DNA of 64,000 nt from an uncultured Bacteroidota bacterium (GCA_963702215.1 OY969726.1:987331-1051330); one strand, 5' to 3'; shown: positions 33,311 through 42,870, counted from the stretch's first letter. The notes: generated by a model not told the origin, from the letters alone. A program made the numbers and translations.

Positions 33311-34663
33311 TCACTCTTTTACGAACTTCGCGCGTTCCCGGTCGTCGATGAGAAAATAAATCCCATTAGGAAGTTTTGAAATATCGAGAAGGAGAGGGCC
33401 GTCTTCGGGCATCTGAACACGCATCCGTTCTCGACCAAGGGCATCGGTAACACGAACCGGCGCAAGCCGGTAATCGAAATTCACCGTTATGCTTTCGCCG
33501 GACGGGTTCGGCCAGACCTGAGCGATTCCAATTGTGTTTGGAGCGGGGACGCTAACGTCGGCGGATGCAAGGGTGCCGCGAATAATTAAACCTGGTCCGA
33601 AAGCCAGTGGAGGCTCTTGCACCACGGCCAATACAACGCCCGGTGCCGGACGAACAATGGAATTCACGGCAGTGAATTGAAAGAAGGGGCCATTCAGCCC
33701 GCCATTCGTGAAGGTAGGAACAGAATCCGATACCCACGATTGCCCATTGTCGGAACTGAAGAGAATGGAGTTCGGCATTGTAACGCTTCGGCCCGCGAAC
33801 AATGTATCGTCAGAGATTGCCGACATGCAATCCACCGTCTGCCCCTGCGGAAGTTCGGATTGAGACCATGTACGACCTGCATTGCTCGTACGAACGATTA
33901 GACCCGACGATGCCGAATCGTGACCATAGCCAATAATGGTATCTCCCTCTGTCCAGTCGGACCACCACAATTGCAAATAAAGGTTGCTCGCATTCGGAAC
34001 GGGCGACGTGGAATCCATCGCAGCCCAATTATTCGAAGTGCGATAAAGAACGCCGGTCATACTATTGAAAACGGCAAATTTCCCAGCGCCATAGCAGTGG
34101 CAATTTCCGGAACCCAAGCCGCTATAAGGCCCGAGCGTCCAATGTAAGCCACCATCCGAAGTTGTCCCACACCGGTCCCCGAACCCGATTATTCCATTCA
34201 TGGGATCGTGAAAATGAACGCCCCGGATGGAGCCAATGGAGTACGGCGGAGGGCTTGTCTGCAGCGACCACGTTACACCCCCGTCGAATGTTCGAAAAAT
34301 GTGGCCGGAATCGCCCACGGCAACAACATTCAAAGAATCAATTTGCTGCATCGCAAATACAAACTGATAGCCCGGTGGCACGCTGTACCCAGGATATTCC
34401 CACAGGTTGTGCCATGTAAGCCCACCATCGTCACTGCGAAGGAATTCATATACATTCTCAATATTTATTCCCGATTCTCGGCCTGCGTAAACGATCGCGG
34501 TGCAGTGGTTTCCATTGCACGCCAGAAGATAGGGCGAATAATGTTGCGTAGTGTCGTCCGATTGGTCAAAAACGGTTTGCCACGTGTATTGCGCACGAGC
34601 GCTACTGGTTATGGTAAGCAGTAGCGCGGTAAAAAAGATTGATCGCGAAAAATGATTTGCCAT
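33311..34663 (-). CDS. Secreted BNR beta-propeller with short T9SS sorting domain
   Basis: SDDGGLTW, TFDGGVTW, TSDGGLHW; C-terminal WPNP...TDALGR...LPNGIYF. Confidence 0.85.
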   Translation of the reverse strand: MANHFSRSIFFTALLLTITSSARAQYTWQTVFDQSDDTTQHYSPYLLACNGNHCTAIVYAGRESGINIENVYEFLRSDDGGLTWHNLWEYPGYSVPPGYQFVFAMQQIDSLNVVAVGDSGHIFRTFDGGVTWSLQTSPPPYSIGSIRGVHFHDPMNGIIGFGDRCGTTSDGGLHWTLGPYSGLGSGNCHCYGAGKFAVFNSMTGVLYRTSNNWAAMDSTSPVPNASNLYLQLWWSDWTEGDTIIGYGHDSASSGLIVRTSNAGRTWSQSELPQGQTVDCMSAISDDTLFAGRSVTMPNSILFSSDNGQSWVSDSVPTFTNGGLNGPFFQFTAVNSIVRPAPGVVLAVVQEPPLAFGPGLIIRGTLASADVSVPAPNTIGIAQVWPNPSGESITVNFDYRLAPVRVTDALGRERMRVQMPEDGPLLLDISKLPNGIYFLIDDRERAKFVKE

Positions 34664-34679
34664 TGACAGAGCTCTAAGA

Positions 34680-35306
34680 TTACCAGTCGCCACATGGTAG
34701 GTGGTAGCAAGCGAGAGGCGTCATCTCAAAGATGTCCACAGCCTCCTCAATGCAGCCGTCCGAATAGTCACTTGCGTAGCTACAATCGCTGATTTGCTCT
34801 TGGTAGCATTCGCATGCCGGATTGTATCCAAAACAAATGGAGCAGGTCTTCGTGCAAAGTCCAGAACCACACTGAAGATAACCTCCGATGCCTAAAGGGC
34901 TCCCGGGGAAATGGATTGGATTTGGGTCATATTTCCAGCAGTTATTGGCGGAAACCGCGACCACGGTGCCGTTTAAAGGTCCACCGCATAGAGGTAGAGA
35001 CGAAATCGATTGATAAAGCTGACCGGCCACGGCGCCCATCAGCTGATCAAGCGTCATGTCTCTGCAGCCACTTTCGACTTGCACGTAATCAATTATATAC
35101 TCGTAAGTGATCGAGCTACCAACGGTAACCTCGCGGAAGCAATAATCCACATCAATTTGGCAACCTGAATATAAGGTCCAAAGACTGTTTGCTTCGTACC
35201 AGCATCCATTGCCATCGTCGGGCGGGCAATTGTTCGAAGGGCACTGCGCAAACGCGCTGCCAGAGATCGTCATGCACGCAAAAACAACTAAAATGAGGGA
35301 TTTCAT
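34680..35306 (-). CDS. Cys-rich secreted protein (18 Cys in the mature part)
   Basis: Signal peptide ending AFA-Q; no recognised family. Confidence 0.8.
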   Translation of the reverse strand: MKSLILVVFACMTISGSAFAQCPSNNCPPDDGNGCWYEANSLWTLYSGCQIDVDYCFREVTVGSSITYEYIIDYVQVESGCRDMTLDQLMGAVAGQLYQSISSLPLCGGPLNGTVVAVSANNCWKYDPNPIHFPGSPLGIGGYLQCGSGLCTKTCSICFGYNPACECYQEQISDCSYASDYSDGCIEEAVDIFEMTPLACYHLPCGDW

Positions 35307-35454
35307 TCCGGTTCCTCCTACAAAGAATCAAGCATTGCCTACTCTTTTTTACGATTTTCGGCATATTCGTTCAAGCGAAAGCTCTGGGCGCGAGATTAGA
35401 CACGCTTATTGTTATTACGCCTCAGCCATCCCAAAAGTCAACGCAACACTGAAA

Positions 35455-40826: not shown

Positions 40827-40945
40827 TTCACAACAATTTTCACAAAGCGCGGCACGGAGTGGTTACGGCTCCCGCAGCGTTTAACTCTTTCAATCGGTTC
40901 CGGAACTCGTAGCCGGCTTTGGAACCGCGTTTCGCTTCATCGTTT

Positions 40946-41455
40946 ATGCTTAAATTCATTTCGATTCGATTCGCCGCACTCGCGGCAGCGTTTGTACTGG
41001 TCTATTTGCTCGGAATCTCTCGGAACGCAATCGCCCAGCCCCCACCCCCGCCTTGCGCAAGCTGCTTACAGGCCGTGTGCGATCGGAACCCTTCGCTCTG
41101 CAACTGCGATAGCACGGACACCGCCTGTTATACTTGGGCGTTGTTAAATACCTGCGATTCATGCATCGAAAGCATCATAGTGTCAACGAAGAACGGTGCG
41201 CCGTTTTCCTCCTGCTGCGCCGTGATAGAGAACCCGACGCGCTCCGGCTGGGCTGCAAATCAGGTCAGCCCGAATATGGTGGACTTTTACGACACCTCGG
41301 GGAACTGCTTGGCCGCGGGGCAGTCGCTTCAGGTAACAACCTGCGGGATTACACCTGGCATTCAAATCCAGCTGCAGTGGTCACCGGCCGATTCGGGCTG
41401 TGTCAATTATGGACAAGGTGAACTCACGCTCGCACCACCGAAGGGCTGCAAATGA
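40946..41455 (+). CDS. Cys-rich secreted protein (14 Cys) with one beta-sandwich module
   Basis: Signal peptide ending AIA-Q; ATGA overlap with the next gene. Confidence 0.78.
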   Translation: MLKFISIRFAALAAAFVLVYLLGISRNAIAQPPPPPCASCLQAVCDRNPSLCNCDSTDTACYTWALLNTCDSCIESIIVSTKNGAPFSSCCAVIENPTRSGWAANQVSPNMVDFYDTSGNCLAAGQSLQVTTCGITPGIQIQLQWSPADSGCVNYGQGELTLAPPKGCK

Positions 41456-42870
41456 AAAGACCTTCGGCTTGCGTTCTTCTCGCCATCGCTATTTTAGCGA
41501 CGGCGAATGAAGTGTACTCGCAAAATATTCCCGGACGCTGGGTAAAGGTAGCGCTTCCGATGGTTGGGGCGCCGGGGAATGATAATACTTTGGATTTTGG
41601 CTTCGTTGACAGCCTCAACGGCGTATGGGTGTCAGGGGGCGGGGTGGTCGGCTCAACGGTTGTTGGCGGACGGACATGGCAGCTTGATTCGGTCCTCACC
41701 ACCCCAGCACTAAATATGAATAAGCGCAGTCTAAATGCTCTCTCATGTACCGGCCCGCGACGCGGCTTCTACCATAGCGGCGCCTTGACACTTTCGATTC
41801 TCCCCGGAGGGACCGGGATCGAATCGCCACCCGAGCCAAATCAGGTGAACGATGGAGCCTATTTTACACTCGCTGAAAAAATGTATGACACCGCTTATGG
41901 ATTCCGCTTGGTGGAATACGTCAGCACCCACGATCTGAGCGAGTTCGATGACAGCGTTGCTATTCTCGTCACGCATGATGGTTGGCGAAGCTCTGACCTT
42001 TATGGTTCGCCTTACATTATAGCGGGAGACACGAGCTACCTTGAACACCATTATCAGCCGATGAACATTGGTTACATCGTCGATAGCAACGATGTCTGGA
42101 CCGCGCTGGGGCGCAACGTGATCCCGAGCGGATCGAAAATTGTTAACGAACCGAAGGTGATACTCCACACGACCAGTGGCGGCGCAACATGGCTTGCTTC
42201 GGATGCATTCGATAGCGCGAACTACCAGCCGTGGGTTTTGGATTTTTCAGTCAATCCTACCACGCGGGAAGTATTCTGCTTTGGAACGAATAGTGCAGCC
42301 GACTGTGCCTATTCAAGCGATTACGGTACCACGTGGCGTGTCGATTCCACCTTCGGAAATGGCCTCTGGCGGCTGGCCAATCCGGCGCACGGTGTTTTAT
42401 GGGCGATCATTGGATCAGGAGCCGAAGCCATCGTTCCTGAATTCCCCCTGATCCACAGCGAAGGCTTTGCGAGCAAGCTTGCCTATAGTTCCGATAATGG
42501 CGCGCATTGGCTGATCGACTCGACCACCTTTATCGACGATTCGTTGGAAGAAATGCACTTCCTCAATGCGCGGCATGGTTGGATTGCCTCCTGGAGCCAC
42601 GATAGCCTGTTTATGTGGTACTACGATGCCAGCAGCTCCGGCGTGGCGAAGCATTCTCCCGGAAGCTCGGGCCAGTTCGCGATTTATCCGAATCCGGCCC
42701 GGAGTTCCATAACGGTGAGTGGCGCACCGTCCGCGCTGACGATCACGGATGCCCTCGGTCGAATCTGGAATTGCCCGGTGAGCGGCCAGCGGGTCGATGT
42801 TTCTCAGCTTCCGGCGGGTATCTATTTCATCTGCGGTGGCAGGCGACGCACGCCGTTCGCGAAGGAATAG
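41452..42870 (+). CDS. Secreted BNR beta-propeller with short T9SS sorting domain
   Basis: TTSGGATW, SSDYGTTW, SSDNGAHW; IYPNP...TDALGR...LPAGIYF. Confidence 0.85.
   Translation: MKRPSACVLLAIAILATANEVYSQNIPGRWVKVALPMVGAPGNDNTLDFGFVDSLNGVWVSGGGVVGSTVVGGRTWQLDSVLTTPALNMNKRSLNALSCTGPRRGFYHSGALTLSILPGGTGIESPPEPNQVNDGAYFTLAEKMYDTAYGFRLVEYVSTHDLSEFDDSVAILVTHDGWRSSDLYGSPYIIAGDTSYLEHHYQPMNIGYIVDSNDVWTALGRNVIPSGSKIVNEPKVILHTTSGGATWLASDAFDSANYQPWVLDFSVNPTTREVFCFGTNSAADCAYSSDYGTTWRVDSTFGNGLWRLANPAHGVLWAIIGSGAEAIVPEFPLIHSEGFASKLAYSSDNGAHWLIDSTTFIDDSLEEMHFLNARHGWIASWSHDSLFMWYYDASSSGVAKHSPGSSGQFAIYPNPARSSITVSGAPSALTITDALGRIWNCPVSGQRVDVSQLPAGIYFICGGRRRTPFAKE

Follow-up and report, generated by a model that had tools for sequence, protein, structure and literature searches.

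In a 64,000-nucleotide stretch of DNA from an uncultured Bacteroidota bacterium (GCA_963702215.1 OY969726.1:987331-1051330; hereafter the window), two loci between positions 33,311 and 42,870 each place a gene for a small, cysteine-rich secreted protein (A) directly ahead of a gene for a secreted beta-propeller (B) with a sorting domain of the secretion system called type IX (T9SS). Comparing these loci with the rest of the genome and with relatives, we found that B, a predicted seven-blade-type propeller with a T9SS sorting domain, is encoded immediately after a small A protein that is predicted to be disulfide-locked, with stop and start codons often overlapping or nearly touching, and that the A/B pair has been inherited and duplicated as a unit. 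The explanation towards which we lean is an undescribed, lineage-restricted surface module in which A would ride out of the cell with its cognate propeller B and in which each module would be switched stochastically by repeats. A reading of this DNA made from the sequence alone had described a two-gene module seen twice; that description held for the first pair (A1/B1), whereas the second (A2/B2) belongs to a three-gene unit of an unrelated type.

A cysteine-rich protein gene directly precedes a T9SS propeller gene

The first pair consists of two genes.

34680-35306, minus strand: A1, family-I cysteine-rich secreted protein of 208 amino acids, partner of B1
33311-34663, minus strand: B1, secreted beta-propeller of the Asp-box/BNR kind, Ycf48-like, that carries a T9SS type-A sorting domain at roughly 33314-33517

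The A1 open reading frame (ORF) encodes 19 cysteines, 18 of them in the mature part that follows a signal peptide ending AFA/QCP (here and below, a slash marks the cleavage site), and 16 nucleotides separate its TAA stop codon from the ATG of B1 at 34663. B1 starts with a Sec signal peptide, read from the sequence as MANHFSRSIFFTALLLTITSSARA/Q, contains five Asp-boxes by inspection, and matched both the Pfam family Sortilin-Vps10 (36.5 bits, cut-off 33) and BNR. Its sorting domain scored slightly under the cut-offs of PF18962 (Por_Secre_tail; 23.6 bits, E 6e-5) and TIGR04183 (21.9 bits) and matched 8glj_D, a T9SS sorting domain of solved structure. Signal peptides that, read in the same way, end at a glutamine are present in A1, B1, A2 and B2 alike, and neither A1 nor A2 had a match in Pfam (E <= 0.1) or NCBIfam.

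The pair recurs in this genome beyond chance

We surveyed the genome, a single contig of 3.58 Mb, using a crude whole-genome call of 3849 ORFs and defining a small cysteine-rich ORF as one of 80-320 amino acids whose start resembles a signal peptide and which has 8 cysteines or more. Profiles built in-genome showed a genome rich in T9SS cargo (231 proteins with a sorting domain) and in BNR-type propellers (109, of which 89 have a sorting domain). Among the components of the secretion machinery, SprA (TIGR04189) scored above its cut-off, split across three frames, and a PorV-like gene reached 246.7 bits against a cut-off of 250.

Of 14 small cysteine-rich ORFs, 8 lie directly upstream of a BNR propeller on the same strand (binomial P ~1e-9), and six of these cysteine-rich proteins, A1 included, are mutually homologous. 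A profile of this family, which we call family I, found 9 copies in the genome, with mutual identities of 25-32%. When the propellers are ranked by similarity to B1, its first 8 paralogs (E 1e-49 to 1e-29, 28-34% identity) are none other than those encoded behind family-I genes, and the next-best match has an E of 2.5e-12; family I and one propeller subfamily have therefore been duplicated together as a unit. With 9 copies here and dozens in relatives, the module recurs as had been proposed. Adjacency by chance in a genome crowded with T9SS propellers, which make up ~3% of its ORFs, is vanishingly improbable given the binomial P above, and is refuted by a gene order kept in about 46 of 49 loci elsewhere; a count of pairs here and in relatives, the check that the sequence-only reading had suggested, thus came out well beyond chance.

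Gene order is kept across six families of the class

Of 301 genomes sampled from the class, 53 contained family I; they are spread over six GTDB families, in each of which the A/B pair occurs. In a phylum-wide genome sample, matches were confined to this class, and a metagenome library of 1.84 billion proteins yielded 912 cluster representatives at E <= 1e-3. The neighborhood set comprised 49 loci outside this genome, some of which end at contig ends. A same-strand ORF lies downstream of the family-I gene, at -300 to +136 nucleotides, in 46 of the 49; a sorting domain could be detected in 40 of these 46 ORFs, and the BNR propeller profile matched 38. An independently found NCBI contig has the same order of cysteine-rich gene and propeller gene. 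Two further downstream partners are propellers of the Reg_prop (two-component regulator propeller) type, both with a sorting domain and from two distant genomes (L044:938-2356 and L062:1013-2422); because these match Reg_prop rather than BNR, family I pairs with more than one class of propeller. Pairwise distances among A proteins correlate with those among B proteins (r 0.60, Mantel p <= 5e-4), a correlation that shows co-inheritance and not binding.

These comparisons bear on the possibility that A and B are merely co-regulated and act apart, A being for example a free secreted binding or signaling protein and B a receptor for something else. The different sequence classes of the partner propellers, BNR and Reg_prop, would fit such an arrangement, as would the family-I members with sorting domains of their own described below, which show that independent export is possible. 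Nonetheless, order and adjacency are near-obligatory across the six GTDB families at identities down to about 25%, a dedicated propeller subfamily accompanies family I in this genome, and the A and B trees correlate, and we therefore consider separate action unlikely.

Family I is predicted to be a disulfide-rich family of exported proteins

In an alignment of 33 family-I sequences, the mature N-terminus Q-C-P is invariant, as are 12 cysteines, with 2 more near-invariant; these 14 conserved cysteines would be enough for seven disulfides. The cleavage context is A-x-A/Q-C-P, some members having insertions between Q and C, and the alignment contained no lipobox. Glutamine at +1 agrees with the 'Q-rule' for signal peptidase I substrates of Bacteroidetes (PMC5837995), and the CP that follows the glutamine is specific to family I. 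Because of this context and the lack of a lipobox, we regard A as a signal peptidase I substrate and not a lipoprotein.

Searching the 33 members against Pfam returned nothing beyond the T9SS sorting domain, which a minority carry themselves. Five members from this GTDB family have one (g2207 in this genome, and L010, L015, L017 and L021), as does at least one from a more distant family (L056), and ~7% of the top 150 family-I representatives may do so, judged by length and by the extent of the profile match. Because this minority carry a sorting domain of their own, A works outside the periplasm.

The main rival to co-export of A with B is that A inhibits or chaperones its propeller in the periplasm, much as a potempin would, holding B inactive or folded until export and itself staying behind. 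The layout is the same as in potempin operons, with the gene for a small secreted protein directly before that for a T9SS cargo and with small proteins that are unrelated between pairs, and the closeness of the stop codon to the next start codon would fit 1:1 production. We nevertheless judge this rival improbable: B lacks enzyme domains, peptidase domains included, and among solved structures its nearest relatives are the non-enzymatic Ycf48 proteins; A is a signal peptidase I substrate and not a lipoprotein; and some A proteins, with T9SS sorting domains of their own, leave the periplasm.

A confident AlphaFold2 model of A1 built from the family alignment (predicted local distance difference test score, pLDDT, 86; predicted template-modelling score, pTM, 0.79) shows two long sheets made of beta-hairpins together with a single helix. 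Searching it with Foldseek against PDB and BFVD found no similar structure (best E 0.02-0.04, template-modelling (TM) scores below 0.26), and the modelled structure is probably a new fold. A small, cysteine-rich, secreted, fast-evolving and multi-copy protein might also be a disulfide-rich effector resembling a toxin or bacteriocin, with the propeller as its carrier or targeting subunit and with phase variation limiting the cost of production. A1 and its relatives had no likeness to any toxin family or fold in Pfam, NCBIfam or the Foldseek searches of PDB and BFVD, and the flanks that we inspected held no candidate immunity gene, which makes a toxin-like effector very unlikely.

The second pair belongs to a three-gene unit of another type

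The second locus, module II, comprises three genes.

39672-40826, plus strand: first gene of module II, which encodes an Asp-box propeller that lacks a sorting domain (Pfam Sortilin-Vps10, 46.9 bits)
40946/40919-41455, plus strand: A2, family-II cysteine-rich secreted protein with 14 cysteines, a cysteine-rich N-terminal part being followed by a beta-sandwich
41452-42870, plus strand: B2, a secreted propeller whose T9SS type-A sorting domain lies at roughly 42682-42867

The longest ORF of the first gene (39609-40826) holds 12 cysteines, and the start codon of B2 overlaps the stop codon of A2 as ATGA. The four ORFs of the two pairs, their cysteine counts (18 in mature A1, 14 in A2), the 16-bp gap and the ATGA overlap were thus all as the sequence-only reading had given them. 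B2 has an N-terminal Sec signal peptide, read from the sequence as MKRPSACVLLAIAILATANEVYS/Q, and its sorting domain exceeds the cut-offs of both PF18962 (29.3 bits) and TIGR04183 (27.6 bits). Its propeller matches were sub-threshold (PSII_BNR 24.1 bits, BNR 13.9 bits), and the in-genome propeller profile recovered it. The in-genome sorting-domain profile retrieved both B1 and B2, whose C-termini align at 30% identity, which together with the PF18962 scores (B2 over the cut-off, B1 at E 6e-5) bears out the earlier description of similar sorting domains. Homology between A1 and A2, which had not been obvious from the sequence, was rejected: BLASTP gave nothing, and a profile-profile alignment (hhalign) was restricted to the signal peptides. 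Judged by their sequences, the two pairs are two unrelated module types.

Of the 35 genomes searched within the same GTDB family, 9 others had homologs of A2. In these relatives, module II runs from a propeller without a sorting domain (10-12 cysteines) through an A2-type gene to a propeller with a sorting domain; a propeller ORF lies upstream of the A2-type gene at 8 of 11 of the relatives' loci, and orthologs of B2 come after A2-type genes. The second pair is therefore a three-gene unit that includes the propeller at 39672-40826.

An AlphaFold2 model of A2 (pLDDT 78) has a beta-sandwich core with weak matches in PDB to Ig-like, cohesin and adhesin domains (E 9e-4, TM 0.38-0.44). Elsewhere in the window, a T9SS protein of 791 amino acids (26584-28959, minus strand) contains repeated modules in which a weak similarity to A2, in its beta-sandwich part, was found (E 3e-4). 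Outside the window, at 739351-741056 of the genome, a cysteine-rich ORF of 185 amino acids with 16 cysteines overlaps the start of a B2-related propeller that lacks a sorting domain; it had no detectable homology to A2 and was unmatched to A1 or other cysteine-rich ORFs in an all-against-all BLASTP, and this locus may represent a third module type. The cysteine-rich gene g780, likewise ahead of a propeller, was rejected as an A2 homolog, no homology being found.

Non-triplet repeats lie at the 5' ends of the modules

Both loci in the window have a perfect heptamer tract, detected with Tandem Repeats Finder, near their 5' ends, that of the first pair standing in front of a sigma-like gene.

39701-39748, plus strand: (CACGGCG)x6.9, perfect heptamer tract in the signal-peptide n-region of the first gene of module II
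35950-36012, minus strand: (CCCGCAG)x9, perfect heptamer tract between the candidate starts (GTG 36029, ATG 36019) and the frame of the sigma-like gene
35455-35925, minus strand: divergent sigma gene resembling the extracytoplasmic function (ECF) type, 148 nucleotides upstream of A1

In module II, five loci share the same arrangement, in which a conserved ATG ('MKH..') is followed by a heptamer tract, whose unit varies by genome, and then by the signal-peptide core. The tract keeps the first gene in frame (ON) in this genome; in four relatives (L033, L035, L038 and L042) the first gene is out of frame with the downstream genes intact, and none of these four has an alternative start able to give a signal peptide.

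Upstream of the first pair, the frame of the sigma-like gene is open upstream and runs through the heptamer tract, and at nine units both candidate starts are out of frame with it. The ortholog of this gene has (CAGCCAG)x4.6 at the equivalent place in its leader, with upstream starts likewise out of frame. Against sigma-factor families, the predicted protein scored 41.6 bits for TIGR02937 (cut-off 42.9) and 26.8 bits for Sigma70_r4_2 (cut-off 25.7), and it had no Pfam match for region 2. The position of the first pair directly downstream of a sigma-like gene, which the sequence-only reading called an ECF sigma, holds for A1 and its ortholog, since locus L031 keeps the order of sigma-like gene, A and B; it does not hold for the family, and the sigma itself is divergent. 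A role as general regulator of family I was rejected because no sigma paralog lies beside any other module. As for an ECF-type promoter between the sigma gene and A1, the ortholog was too diverged for a call.

Other family-I genes have repeats of further kinds. In one relative, the family-I gene L009 runs from its ATG through (TCAGCAC)x6.9 to the signal peptide, and two others have 16-mer arrays in their 5' ends. In this genome, a run of G7-G16 separates the signal peptide from a conserved ATG in 5 of the 9 family-I genes (the ATG opening MTTFILQKEN in three), the tracts lying at genome positions 1245377, 2204505, 2206847, 2209118 and about 3256790; of all 21 G/C runs of at least 8 bases in the genome, 4 are among these tracts. 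Among the relatives, 7 of 49 family-I genes have a G/C run of at least 7 bases near the ORF start (P 4e-6), and six of these 7 runs are poly-G on the coding strand near the start.

We tested enrichment for near-perfect heptamer arrays of at least 4.5 copies only, taking controls from the same genomes. There were 9 such arrays in 261 kb of the relatives' module loci versus 1 in 400 kb of control sequence, and of 6 in the whole 3.58-Mb genome, two lie at the window's modules (Poisson 2e-9). All non-triplet arrays pooled were also enriched at module loci. The presence, placement, enrichment and mixed frame states of the repeats are the signature of phase-variable contingency loci, and the repeats probably act as on/off switches of a variable cell-surface system. 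The earlier suggestion of such a system is thereby strengthened, the paralogs being only 25-32% identical, many copies having slippery 5' repeats and the products being predicted to be exported. Transcriptional slippage on long G runs could also yield partial expression.

Period-7 arrays of a second class are dispersed in the genome: these are mostly AT-rich (AAGTATG, TTCATCA, ATTCCTA, CCCTATA), have ~4 copies, appear to be intergenic and differ from the perfect, GC-rich arrays found at the modules. We accordingly rejected the idea that every heptamer array is evidence of switching, short AT-rich arrays being a genome-wide feature.

Four family-I modules share a nearly identical 5' cassette of ~200 nucleotides, their proteins being only 25-39% identical. 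The cassettes (L086, L087), all outside the window at about 2204370-2204600, 2206700-2206916, 2208980-2209186 and 3256706-3256930 of the genome, consist of a TAnnTTTG-type promoter, a leader of ~110 nucleotides, the codons ATG ACT ACA TTT ATC TTG CAA AAA GAA AAC and poly-G, and their similarity suggests gene conversion or a strong constraint on the leader. That the leader is a structured RNA was rejected, since it had no Rfam match and its folding energy resembled that of shuffled sequence (z +0.47). Other T9SS cargo genes, too, have G/C runs of 8-10 bases at their 5' ends or close to them (genome positions 128778, 547235, 1342627 and 3002878), one of these genes being g1424, the closest paralog of the C-terminal half of B2; homopolymer switching may thus extend to other surface proteins.

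Some genes of this assembly are fragmented. The SprA homolog lies over three open frames at 3493440-3500216 of the genome, outside the window, and the window contains the C-terminal half of ClpB, an incomplete CarB and a Kelch gene that an ATGA junction divides (38219-39496, 31492-33291 and 43109-44115). These fragments hint at indel errors in the assembly, or at real gene fissions, and because they do, homopolymer frame states need care.

Co-export of A with its propeller as the favored explanation

In the explanation that we favor, A and B would both enter the periplasm through Sec and signal peptidase I, A would form about seven disulfides there and then bind its cognate propeller, and the A-B complex would cross to the cell surface through the T9SS on the sorting domain of B. 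The T9SS transports folded proteins (PMC9251779), and because it does, arrival of A at the surface together with B is physically possible. It is a reasonable inference that export of A needs the sorting domain of its partner, because the minority of A proteins with a domain of their own act outside the cell. Slippage of the non-triplet repeats (heptamers, 16-mers and poly-G) that separate the first gene's start codon from its signal peptide would turn expression ON and OFF stochastically; for A1/B1, the switch would be the repeat in front of the dedicated sigma-like regulator. With each module switched independently, a population would display changing combinations of diverged A/B surfaces, the purpose being perhaps adhesion or ligand capture, escape from phages and predators, or both.

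Several points weigh against this explanation. A limited literature search found no precedent for hitch-hiking through the T9SS. The correlation between the A and B trees follows from linkage alone and is no proof of binding, and independent export of A is shown to be possible by those family-I members that have a sorting domain of their own. The likeness of the propellers to the non-enzymatic Ycf48 is weak (E about 1e-3 to 4e-3), so that the activity of B is not inferable from it. As for the switching, all five poly-G family-I copies read out of frame, and poly-G frame states are themselves unreliable because the assembly seems to carry indels, as in SprA; 4 of the 11 modules in this genome have no repeat; and another, AT-rich kind of heptamer array is common in the genome (106 arrays).

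A more far-reaching version of the explanation, in which family I would be a new disulfide-locked fold docking on its cognate propeller, the first T9SS hitch-hiker and a two-chain counterpart of sortilin, giving a free-living environmental bacterium some ten independently phase-variable receptors, is possible and, in our view, rather doubtful as a whole.

To our knowledge, T9SS cargo is thought to require its own C-terminal sorting domain, and a widespread partner family that lacks one and is strictly linked to cargo would raise the prospect that complexes are co-exported. The cysteine-rich family, with 912 unannotated representatives and a confident model that has no solved match, is well suited to structural and functional study. 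What the repeat tracts suggest is that free-living bacteria of the Ignavibacteriae type vary their surface by the contingency-locus strategy of host-adapted pathogens; if so, pressure from phages or predators, or variable attachment, in soils and sediments could be tested through metagenomic repeat lengths.

Comparison with known systems

A limited literature search found no earlier account of the cysteine-rich family, of its obligate pairing with a T9SS propeller or of repeat-switched T9SS cargo. The closest operon layout is that of the potempin/KLIKK genes of Tannerella forsythia, in which the gene for a small exported protein lies directly upstream of, and is co-expressed with, that for a T9SS-secreted protease (PMC7296668). 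There, as here, the pairs are cognate, the small proteins are dissimilar between pairs and the genes seem to co-evolve (PMC7296668). The systems differ in their cargo, which is here a beta-propeller, with no peptidase domain found in B1 or B2 in Pfam or NCBIfam searches. They also differ in the small partner: potempins are lipoproteins, whereas the A proteins are predicted to be disulfide-rich signal peptidase I substrates, some with a sorting domain of their own.

Sortilin has its 10CC module fused to a ten-bladed propeller, at the C-terminal end. The resemblance to sortilin/Vps10p lies in the combination of an Asp-box propeller, B1 being over the Sortilin-Vps10 cut-off, with a small module of many disulfides; unlike in sortilin, the cysteine-rich part is here encoded by a separate upstream gene. 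A1 had no likeness to 10CC/Sortilin_C either in sequence (A1 and A2 against Pfam at E <= 0.1) or in fold (the A1 model against PDB).

Repeat-mediated switching of surface proteins is familiar from the CTCTT repeats in the signal-peptide coding region of Neisseria Opa, from the poly-G genes of Campylobacter and Neisseria, and from the 7-bp repeats at the Haemophilus hmw promoters. Like the simple-sequence-repeat (SSR) contingency loci of host-adapted bacteria (PMC8355987, PMC5084427), the modules described here have non-triplet repeats or homopolymers in the 5' coding part of surface-protein genes that belong to multigene families, and related genomes are found in both in-frame and out-of-frame states. 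They differ in belonging to an uncultured environmental lineage of the Ignavibacteriae type, in being T9SS cargo operons, and in repeat units that are heptamers and 16-mers varying between genomes.

The closest solved sequence relatives of B1 and B2 are the seven-bladed assembly factors Ycf48/HCF136 (2xbg, 5ojp), which are likewise of the Asp-box type and act through protein binding, not catalysis. B1 and B2 differ from these factors in being T9SS cargo that carries sorting domains, in a non-photosynthetic setting, and they resemble them only very weakly (E about 1e-3 to 4e-3). The module is built from kinds of component that are each already known: T9SS cargo, Asp-box propellers and repeat-mediated switching.

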